A stretch of 64,000 bases of DNA from Candidatus Hydrothermarchaeum profundi (GTDB lineage: Archaea; Hydrothermarchaeota; Hydrothermarchaeia; Hydrothermarchaeales; Hydrothermarchaeaceae), in contig MTMF02000008.1 of assembly GCA_002011125.2 (NCBI GenBank), forward strand, positions 1 through 64,000, given 5' to 3'. Numbering within the stretch: position 1 is the stretch's first letter; each line of letters starts with the position of its first letter. Positions 6,363-46,467 of this stretch are shown piece by piece. Under the pieces are notes generated by a model, which was not told where the DNA came from, ran no database searches, and saw nothing but the letters and a program-made list of their open reading frames with translations. The position numbers were made by a program, and so were the translations under genes.

Positions 6363-8903
<2,541 letters not shown>

Positions 8904-18373: not shown

Positions 18374-18382
18374 ATTCCTCCT

Positions 18383-20138: not shown

Positions 20139-20190
20139 ACCTCATTTTTTTTACCAACAACTAATTGATGTCTTTAACATTATCCTATTT

Positions 20191-20226
20191 TCATAAAAAA
20201 ATGAACCTCCTTCTAATAGAGGAGGT
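20191..20226 (-). terminator. Hairpin plus T-tract between napA and napD
   Basis: ACCTCCT(20205-11)/AGGAGGT(20220-26) stem followed on the minus strand by a T7 run. Confidence 0.4.
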
Positions 20227-20239
20227 AAAATTACCAGTT

Positions 20240-30963: not shown

Positions 30964-31086
30964 ATCTGTAGTTATAACTATATATTCTATTTTTGTAAGA
31001 TAAAGAGGGATTTTCTATCCAAAGTTTGATCTCATATTTATCAAAACATATAAAATATGATTTGTAAAATCTGGTAATAGACGAAG

Positions 31087-32013
31087 ATGATCATTATGTT
31101 CAAAGGTGCTCAAATGAACTTTTCTTCAGCGGTTTTAAAAGTATTATTGATTTTAGTACCCTTAGAACTTTTTTTTTATAGAACCTTCACGAGGATAGGC
31201 ATATTTATCCCGAAGAGTAATGAAATATTTACGATATATTCTATTTTTTCTGAATTTGGATATATTGTTTATAATTTTCTTCTGGTGTCGGTGTTAATAA
31301 TGCTGATAGCCTTAGCTTATTCTTTATTAAAAGAGAAGGGAACGTCAGAAGTCTTGATCGGAATATCAATCTTTGCTCTAGTTTTAGAGAATATTTTTAT
31401 GCTTTTTTTTACTGCACAGTCACTAACTCTTTTATTTTATCTTACATCTAGCATTATTATCATTCTTTTAGGTTTTAAGGGTGTCAAAATCCTAAAAAAG
31501 GGAGAAATTATTTTTATCATATTGCTTACTATTTCCTTCTTATTATATCGCTATTATGTTATTTCTCATAGTATATACGGACTTCTAGAAATACCCTCTC
31601 TGCCAATTTTCTCGATAACAGCTCTCTCCCTGGGTGAATTGTCCCTTCCATTAAGTGTATTTCCTCTATTTTTTTCTCTTGTTCTTAAGCAAGGAAAGGA
31701 TCTCTCAAAAAATATAAGTATAGTCATTATAGCATTAGTGGTTGTAACGGGATTTGTTTTATTTTCTCTAAAATTGCCTTCTATGAGCTCAATTTTCACA
31801 ATTTGGACACTGGGATATTCCTTAGCATATCCTTTGCCGGTATATGCTATTGCATTTTTGTTTTTTTTAATAGTGATTTTGAAGTGTGTTAGAGAAAATA
31901 AATTAGATATTGCAACAGGATTGCTGCTCATTTTTGCGTCTGGCTATGCGCATACCCTTACTTATCAACACTTTCTCGCAATACTAGGACTTTTATTATT
32001 TATTAAGAATTGA
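31087..32013 (+). CDS. Polytopic membrane protein of unknown function
   Basis: About 9-10 hydrophobic segments; lies between the TCS cluster and the Rieske gene. Confidence 0.65.
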   Translation: MIIMFKGAQMNFSSAVLKVLLILVPLELFFYRTFTRIGIFIPKSNEIFTIYSIFSEFGYIVYNFLLVSVLIMLIALAYSLLKEKGTSEVLIGISIFALVLENIFMLFFTAQSLTLLFYLTSSIIIILLGFKGVKILKKGEIIFIILLTISFLLYRYYVISHSIYGLLEIPSLPIFSITALSLGELSLPLSVFPLFFSLVLKQGKDLSKNISIVIIALVVVTGFVLFSLKLPSMSSIFTIWTLGYSLAYPLPVYAIAFLFFLIVILKCVRENKLDIATGLLLIFASGYAHTLTYQHFLAILGLLLFIKN

Positions 32014-32043
32014 ATTTATTTTCAACAAATTAGTGCATCATTT

Positions 32044-32076
32044 TTTGGAATTTTTTACAAAAAAAAGCTTTTATAT
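32044..32076 (+). promoter_or_regulatory. Promoter of the Rieske-cytb-nxr operon: degenerate palindrome plus BRE plus TATA
   Basis: TTTGGAATTTTTTACAAAAAAAAGCTTTTATAT about 33 nt before ATG 32109; resembles the moeA element TTTGAAATTTTTTTTCAAAAAAAAGTATTTATAT but is 1 nt shorter. Confidence 0.5.
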
Positions 32077-32108
32077 TTTGATTGATCGAAAAAAAGCAGT
32101 GAATATCC

Positions 32109-32642
32109 ATGGATGATGAAATAGCGCATAAATCAGACAGGATGTCGGTCTCTAGAAGGAATTTCCTGAGAACTATTGGCTGGGGAAGTATAGTTGCCTT
32201 CTTGAGCGGTTCCCTTTTGGCTGTTGTGAGATATTTATTTCCAAAGGTTTCTTATGAGCCTTCTCCCTCTTTTAAAGTGCAGACACCTGAAGATTATGAG
32301 ATTGGGACAGTAGTTGTTGATAAACCTCACAAGGTTTTCATAGTACGTGAAGAAAATATAATATACGCTCTTATTGCGGTTTGTACCCATCTTGGATGTA
32401 CGCCCCGATGGTTTCCGGATGAAGGAATTTTCAAATGCCCTTGCCATGGAAGCAGATTTTATAAGAATGGTATTAATTTCTATGGTCCTGCGCCTAGACC
32501 ATTAGACAGGGCTTTCATTACGTTAGCTCCCGATGGCAGGATTTTGATAGATACGAGTAAAAAATTTAGTTCTGATGGCAGATCTTATGGTGAGGGATAT
32601 TTAGGAGACTGGAAAGACCCTAGATCGTATTTAGAAGTGTGA
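32109..32642 (+). CDS. Rieske [2Fe-2S] subunit of a Rieske/cytochrome b complex
   Basis: Tat motif SRRNFL plus TM; CTHLGC and CPCHGS boxes; GPAPRPL. Confidence 0.95.
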
Positions 32643-32643
32643 T

Positions 32644-33366
32644 GTGATCTTTATGGGCTGGATTAAAAAAATAAAAGAAAGCAGGGTGTGGAAATCCTAT
32701 TTTAGGGAAGAGTATGATGACACTTCTCGTGGAAGGACAAGAAGGATCCTCAGTAATGTTTGGTTCCACATACATCCTGCAAAAATTTCAAAAAAAGCTA
32801 TAAATCCGTCATATACTCTTTGTCTTGGGGGAATTTCATTTCTTTTATTTATTATTCTTACAGTAAGCGGTATCCTTTTGATGTTTTATTACGTCCCAGA
32901 TGTTAATAGAGCTTACGATGACATGCTTGATTTAGAGACAGTGGTGCCATTTGGTATTCCTTTAAGAAACATACACAGGTGGGCTGCCCATGGGATGATC
33001 ATAGCAGTTGTTGGCCATATGTGCCGAGTATTCTTTACTGGAGCTTATAAGCCTCCGAGAGAGTTTAATTGGGTTGTTGGAGTTTCTCTTTTATTACTTA
33101 CACTTCTATTGAGTTTTACTGGATATTTACTCCCCTGGGATCAATTGGCTTATTGGGCTATTACCGTTGGAACAAATATAGCCTCTTATGCACCTGTTGT
33201 GGGGCCAAAAATTAGATTTCTCCTTCTTGGGGGAAATACAGTAGGACAAAACGCTTTAATCCGTTTCTATGTGCTTCATGTAATCCTTCTACCTACGCTA
33301 ATGATGTTGCTTATGATTCTCCATTTTTGGAGAGTGCGAAAAGATGGCTTTTCTAGGGGACTATAA
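32644..33366 (+). CDS. Cytochrome b6-like subunit (N-terminal half of split cytochrome b)
   Basis: YTLCLGG (heme ci Cys position), HRWAAH with His pair spaced 13, [16 protein letters not shown], second His pair spaced 14 ([16 protein letters not shown]). Confidence 0.92.
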
Positions 33367-33378
33367 GGAGGAAGATTA

Positions 33379-33831
33379 ATGGATAAAGAGGAAAAGACAG
33401 AGGCAAGGGTGCATACCTGGCCGCATTTAATGGCTAGGGAATTTATAGTAGCTCTGGCGTTAACTGTTTTCCTAATGGGCATATCGCTTGTCTTTAATGC
33501 TCCATTAGAAGAACATGCTAATCCTGAGATTACACCTAATCCTGCTAAAGCTCCTTGGTATTTCTTGGGCGTACAAGAACTGGTTTCATATGACGCATTT
33601 TTAGGTGGTGTGCTAATTCCGACACTGATTGTTTTAGCATTATTTGCTACGCCCTATATTGATAAAAATCCAAGGGGAGTTGGAATATGGTTTTCAAGAG
33701 AGAGAAAACTCGCTATACTCCTCTTTGCATTGTTGGTGATAATCTGGACGATATTAATAATAATTGGGGTTTATTTCAGAGGTCCGGAGTGGAGATGGTT
33801 CTGGCCGTGGGAATCTTGGGAGATCACATGA
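33379..33831 (+). CDS. Cytochrome b6f subunit IV-like (C-terminal half of split cytochrome b)
   Basis: TWPHL, TPNPAKAPWYF (PEWY-equivalent Qo motif), PYID; 3 TMs. Confidence 0.88.
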   Translation: MDKEEKTEARVHTWPHLMAREFIVALALTVFLMGISLVFNAPLEEHANPEITPNPAKAPWYFLGVQELVSYDAFLGGVLIPTLIVLALFATPYIDKNPRGVGIWFSRERKLAILLFALLVIIWTILIIIGVYFRGPEWRWFWPWESWEIT

Positions 33832-33840
33832 GGTGAAAAA

Positions 33841-34857
33841 ATGAGGATGCTTACATTATTTGTTGTTCTCAGTATGGGATTACTTGCCGTCTTTGCAATC
33901 GGTGTTTATAAAGAAGTATCTCCTGAGTGGAAAAAATATCAAATTGAATATTATGAGGAGCTTAAAAGTGACCTGGAGTCTAAATATAATAATGTTATAG
34001 ATCCTGGCGAAAAAGAAAGACTTAGAATGCAGTTAGAAGCTCTTAAAGAAGAAAAAATTGGGGTAAAACAGATTCTATTGCGTAATAGAGAAGTAGATCG
34101 TTGTCCAACATGTCATATAGATCTAAATACGCTTGCGAATAAGCATCCTACTTCAAAGCATTTTCCTTTTGATATTTATGGTTGCACTGTATGTCATGGT
34201 GGTGAGGGCAGAGCCCTAGATGAAGAGGAAGCCCATAAAGGAATATATGCGACAAAGGCTGATATGTGGTGGCGTTTGAGGGATTCAGAAACTATCTTTA
34301 ACTTTTGGAAGCAACTTGCAATTCTGACTCCTCCTCAAGAGATAGGTAGACAGAAAGAAAAGGAAATGCTTGACTTCCGTGAGTTCACAATTACTGGAGA
34401 AAAAGCTAAGTATTATGGTACGGAGAGCTGTTTGAAATGTCATAAGGATCTTGCTAGCAATCATATTGAAAGATGGGGGAAAACTAAGTTTAAAACGATG
34501 GAAATAGTGAAAAACTCTATTGATTTTATTGAAGGGGATCAAAGTTACAAGGAGCAATGCTATCGGTGTCATACGACTGGCTATGACGAAGATACAGGAA
34601 ATTATAAAGAGGAAGGAGTAAGGTGCGAAGCTTGCCATGGTCCTGGAGAAGTATATTACTATTTGATGAATATAGGCAAATATCGAGAAGCCTCTGAGAT
34701 CGCTATGATAGGGGTAGACTATAATGTGTGTTTTAATTGTCATACTGCTAGGCGACATGAAATGCGGTTTGGAGTCTTTGAAAAAGGTGACTATCAGGGC
34801 GACTGGTATTGGCATGGGTATGATACTATTAATGAAAATAGACAGGAGGAAGATTAA
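33841..34857 (+). CDS. Membrane-anchored hexaheme cytochrome c (diheme plus c554-like tetraheme module)
   Basis: N-terminal TM; 6 CxxCH (CPTCH, CTVCH, CLKCH, CYRCH, CEACH, CFNCH); EGVRCEACHGPG; TAATG overlap with nxrB. Confidence 0.88.
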   Translation: MRMLTLFVVLSMGLLAVFAIGVYKEVSPEWKKYQIEYYEELKSDLESKYNNVIDPGEKERLRMQLEALKEEKIGVKQILLRNREVDRCPTCHIDLNTLANKHPTSKHFPFDIYGCTVCHGGEGRALDEEEAHKGIYATKADMWWRLRDSETIFNFWKQLAILTPPQEIGRQKEKEMLDFREFTITGEKAKYYGTESCLKCHKDLASNHIERWGKTKFKTMEIVKNSIDFIEGDQSYKEQCYRCHTTGYDEDTGNYKEEGVRCEACHGPGEVYYYLMNIGKYREASEIAMIGVDYNVCFNCHTARRHEMRFGVFEKGDYQGDWYWHGYDTINENRQEED

Positions 34858-36173
34858 TGCCTGAGGTATACAATTGGCAACTCGGGAGGAAAATGAAGTT
34901 TCCTTTTCAGGAAGCTTATCCAAAAAAACAATTTGCATTTGTTTTCAATCTTAACCGTTGTATAGCTTGTCAGACTTGTACAATGGCATGCAAATCTACT
35001 TGGACCTTCAGCAAGGGTCAAGAGTTTATGTGGTGGAATAATGTTGAAACAAAGCCTTATGGGGGTTACCCACAGCACTGGGATATAAAACTCCTTAAAA
35101 TGCTTGATGAGTCTCATAAGAAAATGGGAAGAAAGCCTATTTGGAAAAGTGAGATGGAGAAGGGTACTGCCCGGCCTTATGGAGTTTATGAAGGTTTGAC
35201 TATATTTGAAGCTCTCCCGGGGGAATCCACACCGATGGGTTTTACTCCTAGCGAAGTAGCATTGGGTTACTTACCTGGCGATAAAGAATGGCGGTTCCCA
35301 AATATTTTTGAAGATTCTCCTTATGGGCCACTAGGAAAAAGAAATGCATTCGTGCATTCGAAGGGTACCTCTTTGCCTGAGCATGAGCACTGGTTTTTCT
35401 ACCTTCCACGCTTATGTAATCATTGTACTTATCCTGCTTGTCTTGCTGCCTGCCCACGCAAAGCGATCTACAAGCGGGAGGAGGACGGTATTGTTCTGAT
35501 TGACCAAAAACGTTGTAGAGGATATAAAAAATGCGTTGAAGCATGTCCTTATAAAAAACCAATGTTCCGGTCTGCGACTAGGGTAAGTGAGAAATGTATC
35601 GCATGCTATCCTAGGATTGAAGGGAAAGATCCATTGAGTAATGGAAAACCAATGGAAACTAGGTGCATGACCGCATGCGTAGGTAAGATCCGAATTCAGG
35701 GGCTTGTTGATATAGATTCTAATGGGGTTTGGAAAAAAGATCCCCAAAATCCTATTTATTTCTTAGTGCATGTTGAGAAGGTTGCGCTACCCCTTTATCC
35801 TCAATTTGGTACTCTTCCCAATGGATATTATATCCCCCCCAGGTGGGTGCCTAGGAAGTATCTCTATCAAATGTTCGGTCCCGGTGTAGATGAAGCGATA
35901 GAAAGGTATACGGCTCCTTCTAGGGATCTTCTAGGTTTGTTGCAACTTTTCAGAACTACTCAAAAAATCATATTCAAATTTGAGGTACAAAAAACTGGGG
36001 AAAAAATCTATGAAACAACAATCAATGGCAAAAAATGGGCGATGTATAATGACAGGGTTATCGGTTATGATAAAGACGGAGAAATAGTCGTCGATACAAA
36101 GGTTCTAGAGCCTATTTTTGAAAGAAAACAGAAGGATCAGTTTGGTTATTATAAGCATTATAATTCAATTTAA
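34857..36173 (+). CDS. nxrB: Nitrite oxidoreductase/nitrate reductase beta (Fe-S) subunit, anammox/Nitrospira type
   Basis: MPEVYNWQLGRKM, QFAFVFNLNRCIACQTCTMACKSTW, MWWNNVETKPYGG, CNHCTYPACLAACPRKAIYKR, EKCIACYPRIEG, METRCMTACVG, C-terminus KHYNSI. Confidence 0.93.
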   Translation: MPEVYNWQLGRKMKFPFQEAYPKKQFAFVFNLNRCIACQTCTMACKSTWTFSKGQEFMWWNNVETKPYGGYPQHWDIKLLKMLDESHKKMGRKPIWKSEMEKGTARPYGVYEGLTIFEALPGESTPMGFTPSEVALGYLPGDKEWRFPNIFEDSPYGPLGKRNAFVHSKGTSLPEHEHWFFYLPRLCNHCTYPACLAACPRKAIYKREEDGIVLIDQKRCRGYKKCVEACPYKKPMFRSATRVSEKCIACYPRIEGKDPLSNGKPMETRCMTACVGKIRIQGLVDIDSNGVWKKDPQNPIYFLVHVEKVALPLYPQFGTLPNGYYIPPRWVPRKYLYQMFGPGVDEAIERYTAPSRDLLGLLQLFRTTQKIIFKFEVQKTGEKIYETTINGKKWAMYNDRVIGYDKDGEIVVDTKVLEPIFERKQKDQFGYYKHYNSI

Positions 36174-36182
36174 GGTGGTAAG

Positions 36183-36908
36183 ATGGATATAGTATCAATT
36201 AAGGCATTGGCTCGGAGTGTTATATATAAGCATCTTTCCTTATCTTTTCTTTATCCTGATTTAGAGTTTTATGAATTATTAAAAAATAGGATGTTTATAA
36301 AACGAATTCGGGATGCTTCTACGCTTTTAAAAAACGGAAAAGAATTAGAAAAGGGACTGAGGATGTTAGAAGAAAATGTTAAAAACCTAACATTTACATC
36401 GTTACAAGCTGAGCATCGTGTGATTTTCAGTAATATACCCTCAAATGAGTGTCCCCCTTACGAAGCCGAATACGGGACAGCTCACATTCACCAGAAAACA
36501 AAAGAGTTAGCTGATGTTTCAGGATTCTACAAGGCTTTCGGTTTAAACCCTTCAAATAAAATAGGGGAGCGATTTGATCATATTTCAGTAGAGTTTGAAT
36601 ATATGCATTTCTTAACATATGGAGAAGCTTATGCTCGAGATAAGAATGATGCAAATATGGTGGAAATTTATGTTTCGACACAGAGAAAATTTGTAGAAGA
36701 GCACATTGGAAAATGGGTGCCTGTGTTTTTGAGGTTGCTAAAAAAGAAAGCCAGAAAAGGATTTTACAATGCGCTCGTTGTGTTTGCATCTGATTTTGTA
36801 TCTTATGAAATTTCACTATTAGGTGTCAATCCAGAGGAAGTTGGTAAGCCTGAGATTTCGTCATTAGCTATGGAAGATGAATGTTTTTCGTGCGGGTCTT
36901 GTGGGTGA
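36183..36908 (+). CDS. TorD/DmsD/NarJ-family molybdoenzyme maturation chaperone (NxrD-like)
   Basis: CPPYEAEY, LADVSGFYKAFG, ERFDHISVEFEYMHFL, FVEEHIGKW. Confidence 0.9.
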   Translation: MDIVSIKALARSVIYKHLSLSFLYPDLEFYELLKNRMFIKRIRDASTLLKNGKELEKGLRMLEENVKNLTFTSLQAEHRVIFSNIPSNECPPYEAEYGTAHIHQKTKELADVSGFYKAFGLNPSNKIGERFDHISVEFEYMHFLTYGEAYARDKNDANMVEIYVSTQRKFVEEHIGKWVPVFLRLLKKKARKGFYNALVVFASDFVSYEISLLGVNPEEVGKPEISSLAMEDECFSCGSCG

Positions 36909-36913
36909 TAAAG

Positions 36914-37825
36914 ATGGAGATAAAATATGACTCTAGGCTTGTGGAGAATGTTGTAGTAGAAATAATTCGTCGAAAGGAAAAAGAGGGAGATTATGAACTT
37001 AGTGAATATTATCATCGAATCGCGGACCAAATTTACGATGCTCCAAAAAAAGATAGAGAAGATGAATTTAAAAAACTTCATCTAAGCATTTTCATGCGAT
37101 TAGGCTTAAATGAGGTTATAAACGAAGTAGTTGGAGAATTTCCGCAGTTGAGCAAAATAGATGAAATGGTGATATTGGAGGCTAATACCACAGAGGAAGC
37201 AGATTTACTAGTTAGTGAGAAAGGACAAAAAAGAATAGTAATAAAACTTCCTCCAGAAGGATTTCTCAGTTCACATCTTCTTTCTAGGTTTATGCGTCAT
37301 GAACTTATGCATATATCGGATATCCTTGATGAGGAGTTCGGTTATAAAAAAGAAAAATTTTCTAATTCTTTAGCAAATGAAATCGTGATTAAAGAGAAAT
37401 ATAAGTTACTCTGGGATATTTATGTAGACTCTCGTTTAATCTCATGTGGAAAAGAAACGATAGCTGATAAAAGTTTACGATATAAGGAATTCAATAAGAT
37501 TTTTCAAAAAATTCCAGAGGAGTACAGAGAAAGAGTCTTTAACTCTCTTTGGAATTCTAAGAAGTTAACTCATAATGAAATCTTAAGTTTATCGAAAGAA
37601 CCGCGGAAACTCCTTGAAAGGTCTGGTATAAGTTCCAAGGGAATTCTCTTAAGAGGTACACCATGTCCCCTCTGCGGATTTCCCACATATAATTGGTTTG
37701 AAAATCTAAGCGAATTTCGAGATGTTATAGCTGCTATAAAAGAAGACTTTCCGGAGTGGGACCAGGATGATGGAGCTTGTGATAGATGCGTGGAATTGTA
37801 TAGTTTGCAAGTTAGGGGGTTCTAA
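36914..37825 (+). CDS. Hypothetical protein with HExxH motif and C-terminal Cys4 cluster
   Basis: MRHELMHISD; LWDIYVDSRL; CPLCGFPT...CDRC; located between the chaperone and nxrA. Confidence 0.7.
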   Translation: MEIKYDSRLVENVVVEIIRRKEKEGDYELSEYYHRIADQIYDAPKKDREDEFKKLHLSIFMRLGLNEVINEVVGEFPQLSKIDEMVILEANTTEEADLLVSEKGQKRIVIKLPPEGFLSSHLLSRFMRHELMHISDILDEEFGYKKEKFSNSLANEIVIKEKYKLLWDIYVDSRLISCGKETIADKSLRYKEFNKIFQKIPEEYRERVFNSLWNSKKLTHNEILSLSKEPRKLLERSGISSKGILLRGTPCPLCGFPTYNWFENLSEFRDVIAAIKEDFPEWDQDDGACDRCVELYSLQVRGF

Positions 37826-37848
37826 AGTTGAAAAAGGAGGCTAAAGAA

Positions 37849-40800
37849 ATGGCATTAACTAGAAGAAAATTTTTAAAGATGAGTGTAGCAACCGCTGCAG
37901 CAGCTATGGGATTAGGGAAAAAAGGGCTATCTTTAACCATTCTTGAACCTGTACGGGTTGATAATCCATTAGAGTCTTATCCAGATAGAAACTGGGAGAA
38001 AGTTTACCTTGATCAATATAAATATGATTCTACCTTCACCTACATATGTTCTCCAAATGACACTCATGCTTGCAGAGTTAAAGCCTTCGTTAGAAATGGA
38101 GTGATAGTGAGGGTAGAGCAAAACTATGACGTGCAGAAATATAAGGATCTATATGGAAATCAAGCAACAGTGCATTGGAATCCTAGAATGTGTCTCAAAG
38201 GATACACATTTCACCGCAAGGTATATGGGCCCTATCGCCTTAAAAAGCCCTTGATAAGGAAAGGGTGGAAGGAGTGGGCGGACGATGGTTTTCCTGAACT
38301 TACTCCAGAGAATAAGAAAAAATATAAATTTGATTCTAGGGGAACTGATGAACTTCTTCAGATAGACTGGGAAAGCGCATTTGAATATGCAGCTAGGGGG
38401 ATCATAGCCATAGCAAAGAGATACAGCGGGGAAGAAGGAGCTAAAAAATTATTAGCTCAAGGATATGCACCAGAAATGGTAAAGGAGATGGGGGGGGCTG
38501 GAACTAGGACTATAAAATGTCGTGGAGGAATGGGTCTTTTAGGCGCCATAGGAAAATACGGGATGTATAGGTTTTCCAACATGTTGGCATTACTGGATTC
38601 TCATATTCGGGGCGTCGGTCCAGATGAAGCCAAAGGCGGACGCAATTGGGATAATTATACATGGCATGGTGATCAGGCTCCTGGTCATCCGTGGGTACAT
38701 GGTTTGCAGACAAGTGAATGTGATTTCAATGACTTGAGAAATTCAAAGCTTCACATAGCTGTTGGTAAAAACCTAGTAGAAAATAAAATGCCTGAATCTC
38801 ATTTCTTCATAGAACTAATCGAACGAGGTGCCAAGGTCGTTGTTATATCACCGGACTATTGTGCTCCTAATACAAAAGCAGATTATTGGATACCAGTGAG
38901 ACCTAATTCAGACACGGCTTTATTCTTAGGGATTACTAAAATATTGATGGATAACAAGTGGTATGATGAAAAATTTGTTAAAAAATTCACTGACTTCCCG
39001 TTGCTTGTTAGAACTGATACACTAAAGAGGCTGAGAGCTGACGAGGTATTTCCAAATTATGTGAACCAAGATATTTCCAATGGCGTAATGATGAGGGTCA
39101 TGGGGTTAACAAAGGAACAAAGGGATAAAATAGGAGATAGAGTGATATGGGACAAAAATACTAATGGACTCAAAGCCATATCCCCTGAGGACGTGGGTAA
39201 AAAACTTGAAGAGAAAAACATCGATCCTGACTTAGAGTGGAAGGGCAAGGTAAAACTCGTTGATGGATCTGAAGTAGAAGTAATGACTCTCTGGGAGATG
39301 TACAAAGTTCATTTAAGAGACTATGATATCGATACAGTAGCTGAAATAACACAAGCCCCAAAAGATCTAATTATGAAATTAGCAAAGGACATTGCTACAA
39401 TTAAGCCTGTGGCTATACATGTTGGTGAAGGAATAAATCATTGGTTCCATGCAACAGAGGTCAATAGAGCTACATATCTCCCTCTTATGTTAACAGGTAA
39501 TATAGGAATCCATGGTGCAGGAAGTCATACTTGGGCAGGAAATTACAAGGCAGCTTTATGGCAGGGAAGTTCATGGTCTGGTCCTGGATTTCTTGGTTGG
39601 ATTAAAGAAGATCCGTTTAATCCTAACTTAGATCCTAATGCAAAGGCAAAGGACTTAAAAATAAGGGGCACCGTCAAGGGAGAGGCAATTGCTTATTGGA
39701 ACCATGGCGACACACCTCTGGTAGTAGAGACACCGAAATATGGTAGGAAAGTGTTTACAGGCAAAACAGCTATGCCTACGCCAACAAAGGTTATCTGGAC
39801 TACAAATGTCAATTTGTTAAACAACGCAAAACACGCCTATGACATGCTTTTCAATGTAAATAATAATGTTGAGCTTATAATGCAAAATGAGATTATAATG
39901 ACCTCTAGTGTAGAATACGGAGATATAACTTTTCCAGCTAACTCTTGGGTTGAATCACAGGCATATGAGGTACATGTAAGTTGTTCTAATCCTTTTCTAC
40001 AAATTTGGAAAGGAGGAATAAAGCCCCTCTATGATTCTAAGGACGATGTCAGAATATTAGCAGAGGTAGCTAGGGCAATTGGCCGAGAACTTAATGACAA
40101 GCGCTTCGAAGATTACTGGAAGTTTGCACTAGAGGGGAGGGAAGAGGTATATATAAATCGCTTACTTGACGGTTCTGCAACAACCCATGGATATACAGTG
40201 GAGGATATCATAGCAGGAAAATATGGAGAGCCTGGAGCAGCTTTAATGTTATTTAGGACTTATCCTAGAGTTGCATTTTATGAACAAATTCATGATAGCT
40301 GGCCATTTTACACGGATACAGGAAGGCTACATGCCTACTCAGATATCCCAGAAGCAATTGAATATGGAGAAAATTTTGTGGTACATAGAGAAGGACCAGA
40401 AGCAACCCCATATCAACCAAATGTAATAGTAAGCAATAACCCCTATATTCGTCCTGATGATTACGGCTTGCCTGACGATGCTAAACACTGGGATGAGCGC
40501 ACAGTGTTGAATAAAAAGATGCCATGGAGTAAAGTAAAAAACACAAAGAACTTCCTCTGGGAAAAAGGCTATAAATTTTATTGCATTACCCCCAAGACTC
40601 GACATCGTGTGCATTCTTCGTGGAGTGATGTTGACTGGCATATGATATGGGATTCTAACTTTGGGGATCCTTATAGGATGGATAAACGAACTCCTGGTGT
40701 TGGCGAACATCAGATCCATATTAATCCTATTGCTGCTAGGGACTTGGGATTAAATGATGGAGACTATGTTTATGTGGACGCTAATCCAGCGGACCGACCA

Positions 40801-41295
40801 TATCGTGGTGCTAAAAGCAATGACCCAAGATATAGGGTGGCGAGAGCCATGCTCAGAGTTAAGTATAACCCTGCGTTTCCTTATCACTTTACAATGATGA
40901 AGCATGGAGCTTTTATAGCTACCGAAAAAAGCGTGGATGCTCATGAAACTCGCAGCGATGGACGTGCCTTATCCAAGGGCACTGGATATCAGGCAAACTT
41001 CAGATATGGTAGCCATCAAAGTATTACTCGCGACTGGTCAATGCCGATGCATCAGACCGATTCTCTTTTCCATAAAAAGAAGGCCGTTATGGGTTTCATG
41101 TTTGGTAGCGAGTCTGATAATCACGCTATAAATACAGTTCCAAAAGAGACCTTAGTGAAAATATCTAAAGCAGAAGACGGAGGTCTAGGTGGAATAGGAA
41201 TCTGGGAACCAGCTACTACAGGTTTTTCTCCAGCTAATGAGAGTGAGTTTATGAAAAAATACTTGAGGGGGGATCTAATAAATGTTAAGAGGTGA
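37849..41295 (+). CDS. nxrA: Nitrite oxidoreductase/nitrate reductase alpha (Mo-bisPGD) subunit, Tat-exported anammox/Nitrospira type
   Basis: RBS AAGGAGG; Tat motif TRRKFLK; NPLESYPDRNWEKVY; FS0 motif CSPNDTHAC-x39-C; Mo-ligand Asp in YTWHGDQAPGHP; TPKTRHRVHS; WSMPMHQTDSLFHK; NTVPKETLV. Confidence 0.93.
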   Translation: MALTRRKFLKMSVATAAAAMGLGKKGLSLTILEPVRVDNPLESYPDRNWEKVYLDQYKYDSTFTYICSPNDTHACRVKAFVRNGVIVRVEQNYDVQKYKDLYGNQATVHWNPRMCLKGYTFHRKVYGPYRLKKPLIRKGWKEWADDGFPELTPENKKKYKFDSRGTDELLQIDWESAFEYAARGIIAIAKRYSGEEGAKKLLAQGYAPEMVKEMGGAGTRTIKCRGGMGLLGAIGKYGMYRFSNMLALLDSHIRGVGPDEAKGGRNWDNYTWHGDQAPGHPWVHGLQTSECDFNDLRNSKLHIAVGKNLVENKMPESHFFIELIERGAKVVVISPDYCAPNTKADYWIPVRPNSDTALFLGITKILMDNKWYDEKFVKKFTDFPLLVRTDTLKRLRADEVFPNYVNQDISNGVMMRVMGLTKEQRDKIGDRVIWDKNTNGLKAISPEDVGKKLEEKNIDPDLEWKGKVKLVDGSEVEVMTLWEMYKVHLRDYDIDTVAEITQAPKDLIMKLAKDIATIKPVAIHVGEGINHWFHATEVNRATYLPLMLTGNIGIHGAGSHTWAGNYKAALWQGSSWSGPGFLGWIKEDPFNPNLDPNAKAKDLKIRGTVKGEAIAYWNHGDTPLVVETPKYGRKVFTGKTAMPTPTKVIWTTNVNLLNNAKHAYDMLFNVNNNVELIMQNEIIMTSSVEYGDITFPANSWVESQAYEVHVSCSNPFLQIWKGGIKPLYDSKDDVRILAEVARAIGRELNDKRFEDYWKFALEGREEVYINRLLDGSATTHGYTVEDIIAGKYGEPGAALMLFRTYPRVAFYEQIHDSWPFYTDTGRLHAYSDIPEAIEYGENFVVHREGPEATPYQPNVIVSNNPYIRPDDYGLPDDAKHWDERTVLNKKMPWSKVKNTKNFLWEKGYKFYCITPKTRHRVHSSWSDVDWHMIWDSNFGDPYRMDKRTPGVGEHQIHINPIAARDLGLNDGDYVYVDANPADRPYRGAKSNDPRYRVARAMLRVKYNPAFPYHFTMMKHGAFIATEKSVDAHETRSDGRALSKGTGYQANFRYGSHQSITRDWSMPMHQTDSLFHKKKAVMGFMFGSESDNHAINTVPKETLVKISKAEDGGLGGIGIWEPATTGFSPANESEFMKKYLRGDLINVKR

Positions 41296-41299
41296 ACTC

Positions 41300-42253
41300 A
41301 TGAATCGCAAGGGTATTTTAGCTTTTGGAGTCGTCTTTCTTATATCATTAACTTTAACATTTTTAAATATCAAAATTGCAAATTCTCAGGGAATTATACT
41401 TGAAGCTAAATATGTCGAGCATATCTCTATCGATAATATTAATGATCCAGTCTGGGATGAAGCAGTGCCTGTAATAGTGCCTCTTAGTGCTCAGTCGAGA
41501 ATAACAGCTCCGCGGGGAGGTGGAGCAATTAAATCCCTAACTGCTAGAGCACTTCATGATGGAGAGGCGATATATCTTAAACTCACTTGGAAAGATGATA
41601 CTGAAGATGTAAGCTTTTTGAGACAAGAAGATTTCAGAGATTCTGTCGCGGTTCAATTTCCAGTGAAATTAGATAATGGAAAGTTACCTTCTGTGTGTAT
41701 GGGACAACTTGGAGCAGCTGGCAACATATGGCATTGGAAGGCAGATTGGAACGAGGAATACTTAAATGGGTTCAAAGATATTGATAATGTGTATCCAAAT
41801 ATGATGGTGAATTTTTATCCAAGAGAAGAAGAGGAGATATTCTATCCTGCAAAATCTGTCGGAAATCTTTATTCTGTAGATAAACGGACAACCCCTGTTG
41901 AAAATCTAATTTCTACTGAATACGGTACAATAACTCCCTCAGCTGAACAGAATGTAATAGGAAAGGGAGAGTGGAAAAATGGAGAATGGACTGTTGTTAT
42001 GAGTCGATCCTTTACGACACCTTACGAAAGCGATGCACAATTTGGAGTGGGAAAGAGAACAGCTATCTCCTTTGCAGCATGGGACGGCTCTGCTGGGGAA
42101 AGAGATGGCTTGAAGTCTACGTCTACATGGATAGACCTTGAGATATCTGAACCCCTACCACAAAAATCTCCTTTGGATACGATAGTCGTATTTACACTAT
42201 TTGCAGCGATTGTGATTTTTGTTGTATTTATAATAATTAGAACTGTTACATGA
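41300..42253 (+). CDS. nxrC: Heme b gamma subunit (EbdC/NxrC family) with N- and C-terminal hydrophobic anchors
   Basis: ARALHDGEAIYLKLTWKD, FRDSVAVQFP, candidate Met ligand in VCMGQ, NIWHWKADW, FAAWDGSAGERDGLK (candidate Lys ligand); C-terminal TM. Confidence 0.82.
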   Translation: MNRKGILAFGVVFLISLTLTFLNIKIANSQGIILEAKYVEHISIDNINDPVWDEAVPVIVPLSAQSRITAPRGGGAIKSLTARALHDGEAIYLKLTWKDDTEDVSFLRQEDFRDSVAVQFPVKLDNGKLPSVCMGQLGAAGNIWHWKADWNEEYLNGFKDIDNVYPNMMVNFYPREEEEIFYPAKSVGNLYSVDKRTTPVENLISTEYGTITPSAEQNVIGKGEWKNGEWTVVMSRSFTTPYESDAQFGVGKRTAISFAAWDGSAGERDGLKSTSTWIDLEISEPLPQKSPLDTIVVFTLFAAIVIFVVFIIIRTVT

Positions 42254-42262
42254 GGAAGGAAC

Positions 42263-42505
42263 ATGGTTGATGAAAAAAGTGTAGCTGAAATTTTACATAA
42301 GGAGTTCTCAGGGATAGTGGATGAAGATAAGATAAATAAAATTGCTAAGCAAATTGTTGAGTTAGAAGAAGAATGGGAAGAACTTAAGATAGTTGATAAA
42401 GAAATGGGCTGGCGGTTTTCAGTTCAATGCCCAGATATATGTTATCTTGGAGAAAAAGCTAAGGAGGGTGATGTGTTTAAAATTTTAAGAAAAAAGAGAA
42501 AGTAA
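42263..42505 (+). CDS. Small hypothetical protein in the nxr operon
   Basis: RBS-like GAGGAAGG; 80 aa with CPDIC. Confidence 0.6.
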   Translation: MVDEKSVAEILHKEFSGIVDEDKINKIAKQIVELEEEWEELKIVDKEMGWRFSVQCPDICYLGEKAKEGDVFKILRKKRK

Positions 42506-42547
42506 AATATTCTCCTCTTATTTCAAAGGTAGGAACTCTGCAGGGGT

Positions 42548-43315
42548 GTGATAAAGATATATTTAAGCCGTTCATGTGTTACATTATTTATTGTTGGCAT
42601 TGTTATTAGTGCCATATTTGGGTATTCTGTAAGTTATAGTGAGGTCTCTTCTATAAAACAAGAGATGGAAAAAGTGAAAGCTGAAAATAGAGAACTCGAA
42701 GCAAGGATACAGGCCGGATTCAGAGTTTTTTCGGAGTTAGAGAGAATGTCGTATACCCTCAGCCAGATAAGAGTGGCTCTTTTATTGGGTGACTATGAAG
42801 TAGCTACTTTTAGGGCTAATCAATTTAAGGAATCTGCGACAGGACTTTCTAAATATTTAAAACCTGAATATACTACTACCCTGGAGGAGCTAGTAGATGG
42901 GTTAATTGTTGCTATAGAGGAGGGAAATGAAGAAGCAATTGAGGAGAGATCTAGAGCTCTCTTTCTCCTAGTGCAAATATTAGAGTCAGAATTTGGTGTT
43001 AGAGAAGACGTAGAGTTAATAGGGGAGATAGATATCAAGAATAATATGAGAAGGATGAATCATGAACTTGCTAGAATACTCTCTGCTTTGGATGAGGATA
43101 ACTATAACATGACAAAAGAGGCGTTTAATGATTTCAAAAAAATATATATGGCTTTATCTGAAACAACTCCTGAAGCATGGGATCCTTATTTTAGAACTGA
43201 TATTGTATTTGAAATTGAAAAAAGCATTATAGAAAAAGACAAAAATAATTCATTAGAAGCTCTTAATAAACTTTCAGAAAAGAGTTGTGATAAGTGTCAT
43301 ACAAAATATCGTTGA
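42548..43315 (+). CDS. Membrane-anchored helical-bundle monoheme cytochrome c (class II type)
   Basis: N-terminal TM and coiled coil; two helical-bundle repeats; single CDKCH four residues from the C-terminus. Confidence 0.75.
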   Translation: MIKIYLSRSCVTLFIVGIVISAIFGYSVSYSEVSSIKQEMEKVKAENRELEARIQAGFRVFSELERMSYTLSQIRVALLLGDYEVATFRANQFKESATGLSKYLKPEYTTTLEELVDGLIVAIEEGNEEAIEERSRALFLLVQILESEFGVREDVELIGEIDIKNNMRRMNHELARILSALDEDNYNMTKEAFNDFKKIYMALSETTPEAWDPYFRTDIVFEIEKSIIEKDKNNSLEALNKLSEKSCDKCHTKYR

Positions 43316-43344
43316 CTCATATTCCTTGGCATAAATGATAAAAA

Positions 43345-43908
43345 GTGATGGAAATTAAGGCGACAGAGCAATTAAAAGAAGAACATAAGGTTATTAAACT
43401 GATGTTGCAGGTTTTAATAAAGATTTGTGAAAAACTAGAGTCGGGTGAAAAGGTTCCTATAGAACACCTTAATAAAATAGTGGATTTTATTAGAACATTT
43501 GCGGATAAATGTCATCATGGAAAGGAAGAAGACCTCCTTTTTCCGGCAATGGAAAAATCCGGCGTGCCTAGAGAGGAGGGTCCGATTGGCGTAATGTTGG
43601 CGGAGCATGATAATGGGCGGAAATATGTTAAGAATATGGATGAGGCTATTTCTAGATATGGGAGAGGGGATAATACTGCGATACCTGACATAATAGCGAA
43701 TGCAGAGGGATACATCAATCTTCTAGCTCAGCACATTGAGAAGGAAGACAATATACTTTACAAATTAGCAGATATGCATCTCCCCATGGAGAGGCAGGAA
43801 GAATTACTCAAAGAATTCGAAAAAATTGAGCGGGAAAGAATTGGTATTGGGAAGCATGAGGAATTTCACGAATTAATACATCAATTAAGGGATATATACT
43901 TACAATAA
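43345..43908 (+). CDS. Hemerythrin/HHE domain protein
   Basis: LKEEH, FADKCHHGKEEDLLFP, MLAEHDNGR, QHIEKEDNILY. Confidence 0.9.
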   Translation: MMEIKATEQLKEEHKVIKLMLQVLIKICEKLESGEKVPIEHLNKIVDFIRTFADKCHHGKEEDLLFPAMEKSGVPREEGPIGVMLAEHDNGRKYVKNMDEAISRYGRGDNTAIPDIIANAEGYINLLAQHIEKEDNILYKLADMHLPMERQEELLKEFEKIERERIGIGKHEEFHELIHQLRDIYLQ

Positions 43909-43956
43909 CTTTTAAGATTATATTTTAAGTAGTTAATAATATGTATTATCACCGAC

Positions 43957-44298
43957 ATGTCGGTTAACACACACAAAGGAATCGAGTTGGGCATGCTTCA
44001 AATGCAGATTTTATGGCTTTTATGGCGGGAGCCCACTCATGGTTATGAGTTAATGAAAAGACTTGATAAAATAAAGAATAGCAAAGTAGAGCAGGGGACT
44101 CTTTATCCAGCGCTTCAAAAATTGGAAGAGAATAATCTTATAAGAGTTAAAAGGGTAGGGGAGCGGGGTAAAAAGATATACGAACTCACTAGCAGGGGGG
44201 AGGAGATTATGATAAAAACATGTGAAGAATTCTCAAAAACTTTTTCGGGGATTTTTAGTGATTTTGTATGTAAAACATGTAAAACAGAGGTGAGATAA
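43957..44298 (+). CDS. PadR-family transcriptional regulator with C-terminal CxxC
   Basis: PTHGYEL, GTLYPALQKLE, KIYELTSRG; FVCKTCK tail; TAATG overlap with iscS. Confidence 0.88.
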   Translation: MSVNTHKGIELGMLQMQILWLLWREPTHGYELMKRLDKIKNSKVEQGTLYPALQKLEENNLIRVKRVGERGKKIYELTSRGEEIMIKTCEEFSKTFSGIFSDFVCKTCKTEVR

Positions 44299-45503
44299 TG
44301 AGGAGAGTGTATATGGATCATGCGGCGACTACACCTGTAGACCCCCGAGTTATGGAAGCAATGAAACCTTTTTTCTCAGAGAAATATGGTAACCCGTCTT
44401 CACTTTATAGTTTTGCTCAGGAAGCAAAAAAAGCGATGGAGGAGGCGAGAGAAAAGATAGCTGACCTAATTAACTCATCTTCCTCTGAAGTTATATTCAC
44501 ATCCGGTGGCACAGAGTCGGACAACTTGGCTATAAAAGGGGTTGCTTTTGCTAACAAGAAAAAGGGTAAACATATAATAACTTCATCTATAGAGCATCAC
44601 GCAGTGCTCCATCCATGTGAGTGGCTTGAAAAAATGGGTTTTGAGGTAACATATTTACCAGTTGACAATAAAGGCTTTGTTTCTGTAGATAAGTTGGAAG
44701 AGGAGATTCGCAACGATACGATCTTAATTTCAATTATGCATGCTAATAATGAAATCGGAACTATTGAACCTATAGAAGAGATAGGGAAAATAGCGAAGGA
44801 AAGAGGCATATACTTCCATACCGATGCAGTTCAAACTGTAGGAAAAATACCTGTAGACGTAGAAAAAATGAATGTAGATTTATTGACTATCTCAGGTCAT
44901 AAAATGTATGGACCAAAAGGGGTTGGGGCTCTTTATGTTCGCAAAGGCACAAAAATAACTCCTTTAATACACGGAGGGGGCCATGAACGGAATCTTAGAT
45001 CAGGTACTGAGAATGTTTCTGGTATAGTAGGATTCGGAAAGGCGGCAGAACTCGCTGCTCGAGAAATGGATAAAGAAGCAAAGAGGCTGGTAAAGCTGAG
45101 GGATAGGTTAATTGAGGGCGCCTTAAAGATCGAGAACTCTTGGTTAAATGGACCAAGGAAAAGAAGGTTGCCGAATAATGTTAACATAGGCTTTAAATTC
45201 ATAGAAGGTGAATCTTTAATTTTAGAACTCGACTTTAGCGGCATTTACGCCAATACTGGAAGTGCTTGTTCCTCAAAGTCTCTTAAACCAAGCCATGTTC
45301 TAACTGCTATTGGGTTAAGACCCGAGGAAACCCACGGGTCACTACGATTTACTCTTGGTAAACAAAATTCAGATGAAGATGTGGACTATGTATTAGAAGT
45401 ACTGCCTAATGTAGTTGAGAGATTAAGAAGAATATCCCCGTTTAAAAAAGATTTTGGGGAATATGAGGAGGCTTTAGCAAAGGAACAGTCTCATAAACAC
45501 TAG
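44298..45503 (+). CDS. iscS: Cysteine desulfurase (group I)
   Basis: YMDHAATT, FTSGGTESDN, HTDAVQ, SGHKMYGPKG (PLP Lys), RSGTEN, TGSACSS. Confidence 0.95.
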   Translation: MRRVYMDHAATTPVDPRVMEAMKPFFSEKYGNPSSLYSFAQEAKKAMEEAREKIADLINSSSSEVIFTSGGTESDNLAIKGVAFANKKKGKHIITSSIEHHAVLHPCEWLEKMGFEVTYLPVDNKGFVSVDKLEEEIRNDTILISIMHANNEIGTIEPIEEIGKIAKERGIYFHTDAVQTVGKIPVDVEKMNVDLLTISGHKMYGPKGVGALYVRKGTKITPLIHGGGHERNLRSGTENVSGIVGFGKAAELAAREMDKEAKRLVKLRDRLIEGALKIENSWLNGPRKRRLPNNVNIGFKFIEGESLILELDFSGIYANTGSACSSKSLKPSHVLTAIGLRPEETHGSLRFTLGKQNSDEDVDYVLEVLPNVVERLRRISPFKKDFGEYEEALAKEQSHKH

Positions 45504-45513
45504 GAGGAAACAT

Positions 45514-45909
45514 ATGTATAGCGACAAGTTAATAGACCATTTTCGAAATCCTAGGAACATGGGTAGAATGGAAAACCCTGATGGTATTGGAAAGGTAGGA
45601 AACCCCGTATGTGGGGATGTAATGTATCTATATATTAAGATAAAGGACAATAAGATAGACGATATCAAATTCGAGACCTTCGGATGTGCAGCGGCTATAG
45701 GTACAAGTAGTGTAATAACAGAGATGGCTAAAGGGAAAACCTTGGACGAGGCTTTAAAGATAACTAAAAAAGATGTAGTTGATGCGGTTGGAGGATTACC
45801 ACCTATCAAGATGCATTGTTCGGTATTAGCTGCTGATGCTTTACGTGCGGCAATTGAAGATTATCGTAAGAAAAAAGGTAGTGGGAATGATAAGCCAAAA
45901 GATAGTTAA
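45514..45909 (+). CDS. iscU: Fe-S cluster scaffold IscU/NifU-N
   Basis: HFRNPRNMG, GNPVCGD, FGCAAAI, LPPIKMHCS. Confidence 0.95.
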   Translation: MYSDKLIDHFRNPRNMGRMENPDGIGKVGNPVCGDVMYLYIKIKDNKIDDIKFETFGCAAAIGTSSVITEMAKGKTLDEALKITKKDVVDAVGGLPPIKMHCSVLAADALRAAIEDYRKKKGSGNDKPKDS

Positions 45910-46261
45910 AATTCTAAAAAATCCAAAGCATATGGGAAAAATAGAAAGCCCAGATGGGGTTGGGAAAGTGACTCTTGGTGAACCTCATTGTGAGGATGAG
46001 GTATGGTTTTATATTAAAGTAAAGGATGATAAGATAGTGGACGCAAAATTCGAAGCATTTGCATGTGCGCCAGCTTTAGTTACAAGTAATATCGCGGCAG
46101 AGCTTGCTTTAGGCAAAACAATAGGCGAAGCTAAAAAACTTAGTAAGATGGATGTGTCGTCCTACTTAGGAGGGATTCCTCAGATAGAGAGAAAATGTGC
46201 CGACTTAGGAACTGATGCGCTTAAAGCTGCTATTAACGATTATCTTAAAAGAGGACAGTAA
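45887..46261 (+). CDS. Divergent second IscU-like scaffold
   Basis: NPKHMG, EPHCED, FACAPA, IPQIERKCA; three Cys kept, His and LPP motif lost. Confidence 0.8.
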   Translation: MISQKIVKILKNPKHMGKIESPDGVGKVTLGEPHCEDEVWFYIKVKDDKIVDAKFEAFACAPALVTSNIAAELALGKTIGEAKKLSKMDVSSYLGGIPQIERKCADLGTDALKAAINDYLKRGQ

Positions 46262-46467
46262 GATATAGGTCTTTAACTCCATAATTTTTGAAAATCTTAA
46301 AAGTGATCGACGGACGAAGTCAGGTTTAGGCATATTATTTAGTTGTTTTTGATATTTTATTTTGTATGAATACCTAGTTTATTATTTTCTCGGTTTTCTG
46401 TAACCGGAAGCTATAAATGAGTACGAAATTAGTTTAATGCACTTAATTAATTAAATTGGTGAAATAA

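Follow-up and report, generated by a model that had tools for sequence, protein, structure and literature searches.

The stretch of DNA analysed here (the window) makes up the opening 64 kb of contig MTMF02000008.1 (135 kb) of the archaeon Candidatus Hydrothermarchaeum profundi, whose assembly totals 2.19 Mb in 19 contigs, one of them of 1.92 Mb, at 97.65% completeness and 1.46% contamination. Nine genes are packed tightly on its + strand at 32109-42253, each overlapping its neighbour by at most 28 nt or separated from it by at most 23 nt, and they run from a Rieske protein to NxrC, the haem-b subunit of a nitrite oxidoreductase (NXR) of the type found in Nitrospira, Nitrospina and anammox bacteria. 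An earlier note, made from the letters of this DNA, had read five open reading frames (ORFs) here as nxrB, a chaperone, a gene X, nxrA and nxrC, and all five are there, in that order on the + strand, between 34857 and 42253. Its outline of the operon held for these five genes and fell short for the whole unit, since it missed the Rieske/cytochrome b/hexahaem module upstream. We think that 32109-42253 is probably one respiratory operon, bacterial in type and acquired horizontally, and that the unit perhaps reaches from 31087 to 43315. Its genes and immediate neighbours are:

31087-32013, + strand: polytopic membrane protein "TM308" (308 aa), without a Pfam family; membership of the unit uncertain
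32109-32642, + strand: Rieske [2Fe-2S] protein (PF00355, E 2.7e-09), with the twin-arginine N-terminus SRRNFLR
32644-33366, + strand: cytochrome b6-like N-terminal half of cytochrome b (240 aa; PF00033, E 7.5e-44)
33379-33831, + strand: subunit-IV/petD-like C-terminal half of cytochrome b (150 aa; PF00032, E 9.4e-06)
33841-34857, + strand: hexahaem c-type cytochrome (338 aa), with six CxxCH motifs, PF13435 and other multihaem families, and an N-terminal membrane/signal helix
34857-36173, + strand: NxrB, iron-sulfur subunit (438 aa; PF13247), matching Kuenenia NXR-B
36183-36908, + strand: TorD/NarJ-type assembly chaperone (241 aa; PF02613, E 2.1e-20; TIGR03482 at 87.5 bits, below the cut-off of 152.3)
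36881-37825, + strand: protein X (314 aa), without a Pfam or NCBIfam family; likely start Met12, at base 36914
37828-41295, + strand: NxrA, catalytic subunit with molybdenum-bis(molybdopterin guanine dinucleotide) (Mo-bisMGD), predicted to be exported by twin-arginine translocation (Tat) (1155 aa from TTG); likely start ATG 37849
41282-42253, + strand: NxrC, haem-b subunit (323 aa; PF09459 EB_dh, E 5e-35), with a signal peptide and a C-terminal transmembrane helix
42263-42505, + strand: small acidic ORF (80 aa), without a Pfam family, starting 9 nt after nxrC; membership of the unit uncertain
42548-43315, + strand: helical monohaem c-type cytochrome (255 aa), with a single CxxCH, an N-terminal helix and a C-terminal CDKCH

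The genes for the Rieske protein, the split cytochrome b and the hexahaem cytochrome stand directly upstream of nxrB, with gaps of 1-12 nt or an overlap; the end of the hexahaem gene overlaps the start of nxrB by one base, and the nxr part proper has the order B-chaperone-X-A-C. The TM308 gene ends 95 nt before the Rieske gene. Downstream, the 80-aa ORF and the monohaem cytochrome may be further parts of the unit.

All three structural subunits match the NXR of Kuenenia stuttgartiensis. Among Protein Data Bank (PDB) chains, NxrA scored 1903.7 bits against Kuenenia NXR-A (7b04_B) over residues 8-1153; the next families reached 195 bits (4ydd_A, deposited as a dimethyl sulfoxide (DMSO) reductase family type II enzyme), 132 bits (EbdA, ethylbenzene dehydrogenase) and about 92 bits (E. 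coli NarG). NxrB scored 601.3 bits against NXR-B (7b04_A) over residues 3-426, as against 185 bits for E. coli NarH, and NxrC scored 112.2 bits against NXR-C (7b04_C). A database protein 100% identical to NxrA (P0001) is 1148 aa long, which fits a start at ATG 37849; residue numbers given here for NxrA count from the TTG start.

The cofactor ligands tell the same story. The motif CSPNDTHAC of the FS0 cluster begins at NxrA residue 74 and is followed, 39 residues further on, by a Cys; the FS0 ligands are C74, D78, C82 and C122, the substrate Asn is N77, and the Mo ligand D282 falls within YTWHGDQAPGHP, at residue 277. These align to C67, D71, C75, C115, Asn70 and Asp275 of Kuenenia NXR-A, which are its FS0 ligands, substrate Asn and Mo ligand (PMC8387239). 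Likewise, Met140 and Lys278 of NxrC align with the Kuenenia haem ligands Met155 and Lys305 (PMC8387239), and the window proteins conserve every cofactor ligand that the structure paper names. NxrB starts with MPEVYNWQLGRKM, carries CIACQTCTMAC at residue 35 and ends in KHYNSI; together with CSPNDTHAC-x39-C and YTWHGDQAPGHP, these are the motifs that had been quoted from the letters, and all of them were found in their places.

Two readings of these motifs fared differently. The contrast drawn between this FS0 and the His-led motif of NarG and pNarG holds in our alignment, where the NXR clade reads C-x-P-N-D-T-H-x-C and the NarG of Ralstonia and Thermus and the pNarG of Haloferax read H-x3-C-x3-C, in agreement with PMC8387239. 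The proposal that CIACQTCTMAC, DQAPGHP and KHYNSI are "anammox-like" did not survive: the motifs are not SPECIFICALLY anammox-like and are found across the clade. Conservation across the NXR-clade rows holds for the N-terminus of NxrB, for CIACQTCTMAC and for YTWHGDQAPG, whose next residue is H or Q; the HYNSI end recurs only in a Nitrospinota locus (L011), and the other NXR-clade rows vary.

NxrA carries the Tat motif TRRKFLK (TIGR01409, 21.2 bits against a cut-off of 16.7), and the C-terminus of NxrC is hydrophobic, a helix that we read from the sequence. The Tat motifs of NxrA and the Rieske protein, the signal peptide and C-terminal helix of NxrC and the N-terminal helix of the hexahaem cytochrome together indicate an enzyme that is predicted to face outward and to be tethered to the membrane.

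Protein family models were of less help with NxrA. No NCBIfam model reached its cut-off (TIGR03479, 330.9 bits against 984.75; TIGR01580, 129.5 against 1084), and the source names of NxrA relatives are generic. That NCBIfam places NxrA at subfamily level only, below the TIGR03479 cut-off, would leave room for an enzyme that acts on chlorate, selenate or another oxyanion, as other type II DMSO reductases do, and some close relatives of the window's cytochrome b are named after a selenite/tellurite operon. We nevertheless hold another substrate to be extremely improbable: the substrate Asn and the Mo-ligating Asp are kept, the match of about 1900 bits is to an enzyme assayed with nitrite and nitrate (PMC8387239), and a (per)chlorate-type locus with a chlorite dismutase neighbour (L064) branches far off in the trees. 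NxrA belongs to the periplasmic NXR lineage (Nitrospira/Nitrospina/anammox type) of the type II DMSO reductases.

We placed NxrA in two trees rooted with NarG, a FastTree tree of 178 rows and an IQ-TREE tree (LG+G4) of 57 rows. Both were built from sequences other than those of named Nitrospira or Nitrospina isolates and anammox bacteria, and both set aside 12 fragmentary loci with fewer than 800 aligned residues (L029, L036, L040-L044, L046-L050) and the duplicates L001, L028, L051 and L055; of one Hydrothermarchaeota copy (G007), whose two NxrA halves are unjoined, the 845-aa piece was used. NxrA fell with neither canonical NarG nor pNarG. It grouped with P0002-P0004 with support of 100 in both trees, and this group nests among rows of 63-80% identity that include Nitrospinota loci. 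The earlier assignment to the outward-facing NXR lineage, as opposed to NarG or pNarG, is therefore upheld by score (1903.7 against about 92 bits) and by nesting within the clade in both trees. Kuenenia NXR-A itself scored 1903.7 bits with the window NxrA, 1894.1 with P0002 and 1856 with P0086, and P0002 and P0086 lie in different branches; with scores this nearly equal, the Kuenenia enzyme is not specially close to that of the window.

Most of the named relatives of NxrA are bacterial. The best 120 comprise its own record P0001, three proteins at 79-80% identity and 116 at 67-73%, and every one of them that has a source name is from a bacterium. Among 50 NxrA loci from species genomes, 48 have bacterial titles and two have Hydrothermarchaeota titles. 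Within the phylum, NXR is present in 4 of 38 species genomes (3 of 21 genera), the window's genome (G000) included. The three other copies come from G002, of the same family, and from G022 and G007, of the same order as G000, whose NxrA matches share their contig coordinates with L001 and L028, loci of metagenome-assembled genomes (MAGs) titled "Candidatus Hydrothermarchaeota archaeon". In both trees these three copies sit in another clade, with a protein named from Anaerolineae, and their gene order is C-A-B-chaperone-X as against B-chaperone-X-A-C in the window. Forcing the four archaeal rows together cost 398 log-likelihood units (delta lnL) and was rejected by the approximately unbiased (AU) test (p-AU 2e-64), the group having been set by taxonomy and the test run after the tree was seen.

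The bacterial affinity of NxrA relatives, the occurrence in 4 of 38 genomes, the failure of the archaeal copies to form one clade and a cytochrome b nearer to bacteria support a horizontal origin of the operon, and also a foreign origin within the phylum on more than one occasion. Horizontal exchange had been proposed from the letters; the bacterial relatives, the trees and the AU test all speak for it.

Rows of 38-46% identity (P0123, P0125 and the Natronococcus locus L062) form a clade neighbouring core NXR, which we do not equate with the sister clade of PMC6050957. On the L062 replicon, Natronococcus occultus SP4 plasmid 2, the region 5995-11300 has an NxrA-like ORF of 38% identity, for which the PLSDB table has no gene, together with NxrB-like and TorD-like genes, and a cbb3-type oxidase gene lies nearby.

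All genes from Rieske to NxrC have their closest named relatives in bacteria, as would be expected if bacterial DNA had been misjoined to, or misbinned with, an archaeal genome. We find that explanation barely credible. On its 135-kb contig the operon is flanked by genes typical of the phylum, and its composition and GC fit the genome. A CDC48 fragment, Mer (437.6 bits against a cut-off of 276) and subunit I of an A/V-type ATPase are encoded on the same contig, and a tRNA(CAU) at 56440-56533 (+ strand; Rfam 52.1 bits; missed by ARAGORN as run here) has a 21-nt intron just after the anticodon, the canonical position; the CDC48 fragment, Mer and the 21-nt insertion of the tRNA bear out three of the archaeal flanking features that the earlier note had listed. 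The flanking gene tgt has relatives in 35 of the 38 genomes of the phylum, with identities of 63-67% in the same family and 51-57% in the same class, and this fall with taxonomic distance indicates that the contig is native to the phylum.

Composition agrees. The GC content of the operon genes (0.35-0.41) matches the host. In GC at third codon positions (GC3) they range from the 5th to the 65th percentile of 1073 genome ORFs, and in codon-usage distance from the 14th to the 91st percentile of ORFs comparable in length, of which there were none for the shortest gene. The tetranucleotide correlation of the operon with the main contig is 0.950 (48 main-contig windows: median 0.975, 5th percentile 0.910), and that of the whole 135-kb contig is 0.996.

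Continuity was examined in assembled contigs, not reads. From one sequencing run (X1), possibly the one that yielded this DNA, a single 49,361-base Logan contig made by another assembler spans 27000-46999 with 0 differences. From a run of another study (X2), 23 contigs of at least 99% identity together account for all 30 bins, with pieces that span each end of the nxr genes. The composition, the X1 and X2 contigs and the distribution of Tgt support the earlier reading that the genome is archaeal. The host is a Hydrothermarchaeota archaeon, and the evidence argues against a chimeric region.

The upstream module has a history of its own. Beyond its own record P0391, the closest relatives of the cytochrome b are 58-70% identical, and all those with a source name are bacterial (Armatimonadetes, Chloroflexi and a Nitrospinae MAG); identity to proteins of its own phylum is at most 52%. 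The hexahaem cytochrome occurs in one of the 38 phylum genomes, that of the window; among the scanned JGI metagenome contigs it has one relative, at 30% identity, and none was found in the 52 NXR loci examined. With a cytochrome b nearest to bacteria and a hexahaem cytochrome that has no close relatives in the phylum or the JGI contigs, the unit looks like a composite of bacterial modules that may have been in its host long enough to take on the host's composition.

Two proteins without known families are linked to NXR by their neighbourhoods. Protein X has 245 relatives at E<=0.001, some named from Nitrospira and Nitrospinaceae, and relatives of it adjoin nxr genes in 17 of the 52 loci; across 120 sequences Glu130, His133, Asp136 and four Cys in two CxxC pairs do not vary. 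Protein X lacks a signal peptide and is a candidate cytoplasmic maturation factor of NXR. Relatives of TM308, of 24-34% identity, stand at the end of NXR operons in 5 of the 52 loci, four of them in Chloroflexota (L003, L006, L039, L045) and one in G002 (L067), and TM308 may be an NXR-associated membrane subunit or partner. Protein X and TM308 are thus candidates for missing factors of NXR maturation or anchoring.

The 255-aa cytochrome downstream, with its CxxCH at residue 247 of 255, recalls four-helix-bundle c-type cytochromes and is possibly an extra electron carrier. A single-sequence model of it was all-helical and of low confidence (pLDDT 63.9). No PDB chain matched its sequence at a meaningful E-value, and a Foldseek search with this poor model gave none at E<=0.001, with cytochrome c' chains as non-significant leads and a best Atlas score of 0.86. 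A likeness to the NXR-T subunit of Kuenenia was considered and set aside as a mere idea, there being no significant match in sequence or structure.

What the enzyme does in this archaeon depends on the rest of the genome. The genome has carbon monoxide dehydrogenase (CODH)/prismane, a NiFe hydrogenase and two genes of the futalosine pathway. Cytochrome bd (PF01654) was not found in the 97.65%-complete genome, and the only full member of the haem-copper family (PF00115/COX1) is a NorB of the cytochrome c-dependent nitric oxide reductase (cNOR) type, at 391.6 bits to 3o0r_B, beside a c-type cytochrome. Searches of the same genome did not find mcrA, for which reason a Methanoperedens (ANME-2d) genome was discarded as a hypothesis, or the alpha subunit of hydrazine synthase; that for NosZ was blank, and control genomes were equally silent. 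Next to norB lies a 415-aa ORF (contig C9 of the genome, 122412-123533; L059 1399-2646, - strand) with three partial matches, all to one C-terminal portion of the haem-copper oxidase family (COX1 positions of about 274-403).

We consider quinol-dependent nitrate reduction, fed by the enzyme's own Rieske/cytochrome b/hexahaem module, to be the most likely use, because of the low-potential donors, the menaquinone genes and the absence of any O2 reductase among our matches, with no obvious sink for electrons from nitrite. Menaquinol would be produced by the oxidation of H2, CO or organic substrates and would be oxidised at the Rieske/cytochrome b complex. The hexahaem cytochrome c would then hand electrons to the NxrC haem b, from which they would travel down the iron-sulfur (FeS) chain of NxrB and through FS0 of NxrA to the molybdenum site, where nitrate would be reduced to nitrite outside the cytoplasmic membrane; energy would be conserved at the Rieske/cytochrome b step. 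In this scheme we infer the catalytic direction, the electron path and the quinone used. Nitrate reduction was also the probable role proposed in the earlier note, and we too judge it the likelier direction.

Several points weigh against this account of the operon. Catalytic direction is not readable from sequence, and the Kuenenia enzyme catalyses both reactions (PMC8387239). Met/Lys ligation of the haem has been tied to a high potential (PMC8387239), and the window enzyme has both this ligation and an Asp-ligated FS0, as true nitrite oxidisers do. The Rieske/cytochrome b complex could run in reverse, and the electron path via the hexahaem cytochrome is drawn from gene order alone. NrfA and NirS were not found in the genome, and for NirK the only match was one of 19 bits to TIGR02376. 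The genome already encodes a NapA-like enzyme, which makes a second nitrate reductase seem superfluous. At least one habitat of the phylum is poor in nitrate (PMC6775978). As for origin, the closest relatives P0002-P0004 do not allow a donor lineage to be named.

A rival reading is a physiological nitrite oxidase working in an anaerobe. The enzyme is of the core NXR clade and keeps all the Kuenenia ligands, including the Asp-ligated FS0 and the Met/Lys haem b; NXR is bidirectional (PMC8387239); nitrite-oxidising archaea have already been suggested in print, for a sister clade (PMC6050957); and the cNOR and an octahaem protein resembling hydroxylamine oxidoreductase (HAO) in the genome could handle nitrite or NO. 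In one version, resembling anammox, electrons from nitrite would serve CO2 fixation through reverse flow in the Rieske/cytochrome b complex; in another, nitrite would be dismutated, its electrons going to NO reduction by cNOR. Set against this, O2 reductase, hydrazine synthase, NirS and a clear NirK were not found in the genome, the low-potential donors (hydrogenase and CODH) make nitrate a useful acceptor, and equally similar enzymes occur in many non-nitrifying bacteria. We think a nitrite oxidase unlikely. That an anaerobic archaeon runs a core-clade NXR oxidatively with nitrite as donor, passing the electrons to cNOR or uphill to Wood-Ljungdahl carbon fixation, is very unlikely; if true, it would make this the first archaeon to oxidise nitrite, and one that does so independently of oxygen. 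The candidacy for archaeal nitrite oxidation raised in the earlier note is weakened, with no cytochrome bd found and a cNOR-type NorB as the sole full haem-copper match, and the novelty of the idea had been overstated, as it was raised before from the sister clade (PMC6050957).

The enzyme might instead work in either direction according to conditions and serve mainly in nitrite detoxification or redox balancing, and not as a main step of energy conservation. Its solved homologue works in both directions (PMC8387239), one 30-kb island encodes a further nitrate reductase, of NapA-like type, as well, and genes for a hemerythrin and a PadR-type regulator stand just downstream. A dedicated Rieske/cytochrome b/hexahaem module would be a large expense for an enzyme that does no more than detoxify, and two sensor kinase/regulator pairs adjoin the enzyme genes; we judge such a role quite unlikely and retain respiratory nitrate reduction.

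The 30-kb island also encodes, besides the two sensor kinase/response regulator pairs, a second set of genes:

17199-17687, - strand: MobB
17783-18373, - strand: FmdE-like protein
18383-19582, - strand: MoeA
20240-22630, - strand: NapA-like enzyme, predicted to be Tat-exported (657 bits to NapA, below the cut-off of 904)
22627-24099, - strand: octahaem HAO-like protein, with a signal peptide and a C-terminal anchor (best PDB match 4qo5, 188 bits)

The octahaem gene overlaps the start of the napA-like gene by 4 nt, and the module at 17199-24099 is possibly a route from nitrate through nitrite to ammonium. An anammox-like metabolism was considered and rejected: the alpha subunit of hydrazine synthase is lacking from our matches in the genome, and the HAO-like protein comes closest to 4qo5, a chain entered in the PDB as a hypothetical multihaem protein, rather than to hydrazine dehydrogenase.

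Comparison with known systems places the operon among them without equating it with any. Kuenenia NXR-ABC (PDB 7B04; PMC8387239) shares full-length matches of all three subunits, the same ligands and a Tat signal on NxrA. Unlike Kuenenia, the window's host is an archaeon without an anammoxosome, in whose genome hydrazine synthase was not found; its NxrC has a C-terminal membrane helix; its 255-aa cytochrome found no sequence match to NXR-T among the PDB comparisons; and its genes have the order B-chaperone-X-A-C with a Rieske/cytochrome b module upstream.

A second group comprises NXR-like operons from bacteria that do not nitrify (Chloroflexota, Verrucomicrobiota, Planctomycetota, Acidobacteriota, NC10 and others), whose NxrA is 58-74% identical over the best aligned segment of each locus. 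A chaperone is present in 41 of 52 loci and X in 17, but the order B-chaperone-X-A-C occurs in none of the 52; L021 has B-chaperone-A-C. In a single locus, L008 of a Verrucomicrobiia MAG, genes for a Rieske protein, cytochrome b and subunit IV stand directly upstream of NxrC-A-B-chaperone-X, which is a bacterial precedent for linking Rieske/cytochrome b and NXR modules.

Among archaea, Methanoperedens and haloarchaea are described as having Rieske/cytochrome b complexes wired to outward-facing nitrate reductases (PMC4683180). In haloarchaeal pNar (Haloferax larsenii plasmid, L063) an outward-facing enzyme is encoded together with a Rieske NarB, a cytochrome b NarC and an EB_dh-like Orf7, and the logic proposed for it, from quinol through Rieske/cytochrome b to the enzyme, is the same (PMC4683180). 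Its catalytic subunit is only about 27% identical to NxrA, has a His-led FS0 and lies outside the NXR clade; conversely, NxrA is not of the pNarG clade, although Rieske and cytochrome b genes are in its cluster. Because the window's cytochrome b is nearest to bacterial proteins, we take the shared Rieske/cytochrome b linkage to be a likeness of design, not of descent.

Methanoperedens likewise has a laterally acquired, Tat-exported Nar/Nxr-type enzyme with an Orf7-like haem b, and its electrons are proposed to pass via Rieske/cytochrome b and multihaem c-type cytochromes, with a pentahaem cluster (PMC4683180, PMC7327174). Going by published descriptions, it differs in having the two modules in separate clusters (PMC4683180, PMC7327174) and a catalytic subunit that groups with "cytoplasmic NxrA" (PMC7327174). 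The clade of Nitrotoga, Hydrogenobaculum and Caldiarchaeum, about 40% identical to Kuenenia NxrA (PMC8387239), is also outward-facing, has archaeal members and is the published basis of the idea of archaeal nitrite oxidation; it is a distinct sister lineage (PMC6050957), and the window enzyme is in the core lineage.

Two further types can be told apart from the window enzyme. The canonical cytoplasmic NarGHI differs in all that we compared, NxrA having 92 bits to NarG, a Cys/Asp FS0 and a Tat signal (NarI was not searched for). The terminal O2 reductase of aerobic nitrite-oxidising bacteria was not found in the genome, where PF01654 had no match and PF00115 matched NorB and the 415-aa ORF with its partial repeats.

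Hydrothermarchaeota have been reported to carry nap and a "cytoplasmic membrane-bound" narGHIJ (PMC6775978, PMC6759336), and the accessible parts of these reports mention no affinity to NXR. Elsewhere, nitrite-oxidising archaea were suggested in 2018 from a clade with Nitrotoga NXR and sequences of Caldiarchaeum and a crenarchaeon (PMC6050957), a review lists NXR homologues in Halobacteria and Nitrososphaerales (PMC12806544), and a 2025 study has Halobacteriota in the wider clade around anammox NXR (PMC12758564). We found no statement in the literature that an archaeon, or Hydrothermarchaeota, carries a core-clade NXR, though Figure S5 and Table S10 of PMC6775978, a nitrate reductase tree and a gene list, may already show an NXR affinity of the "nar" genes of the phylum; PMC10839748 and PMC10203281 name Hydrothermarchaeota nowhere but in their references.

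The core periplasmic lineage of NXR is familiar from Nitrospira, Nitrospina and anammox bacteria, as well as from numerous uncultured bacteria; the window now places it in Archaea too, in a copy about as similar to the Kuenenia enzyme as the bacterial members of the clade are. This suggests that at least some "nar" genes of Hydrothermarchaeota encode outward-facing NXR-type enzymes, and the bioenergetics to be expected change with it: a Q-cycle in place of the NarI redox loop, and no need for nitrate import. The presence of two unrelated versions of the operon in one phylum implies that the module is mobile. For surveys it is a warning that nxrA and nxrB matches from subsurface or hydrothermal sites may come from anaerobic archaea that are probably nitrate reducers. 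The finding is useful for NXR evolution and for the reading of nxr marker genes; it is not a new mechanism.

Elsewhere on the contig, bacterial-type queuosine genes lie at 6818-8903 and 59919-60734 (both - strand) and encode Tgt (472 bits, above cut-off), QueA (408 bits) and a weak QueG/RDH-like protein; as Tgt occurs in 35 of the 38 genomes, we regard this as a trait of the phylum and not as contamination. The genome also has two Mer paralogues that are 67% identical, one in the window (62275-63279) and one on contig C9 (167996-168961); the best Mer in other genomes of the phylum is 47% identical.

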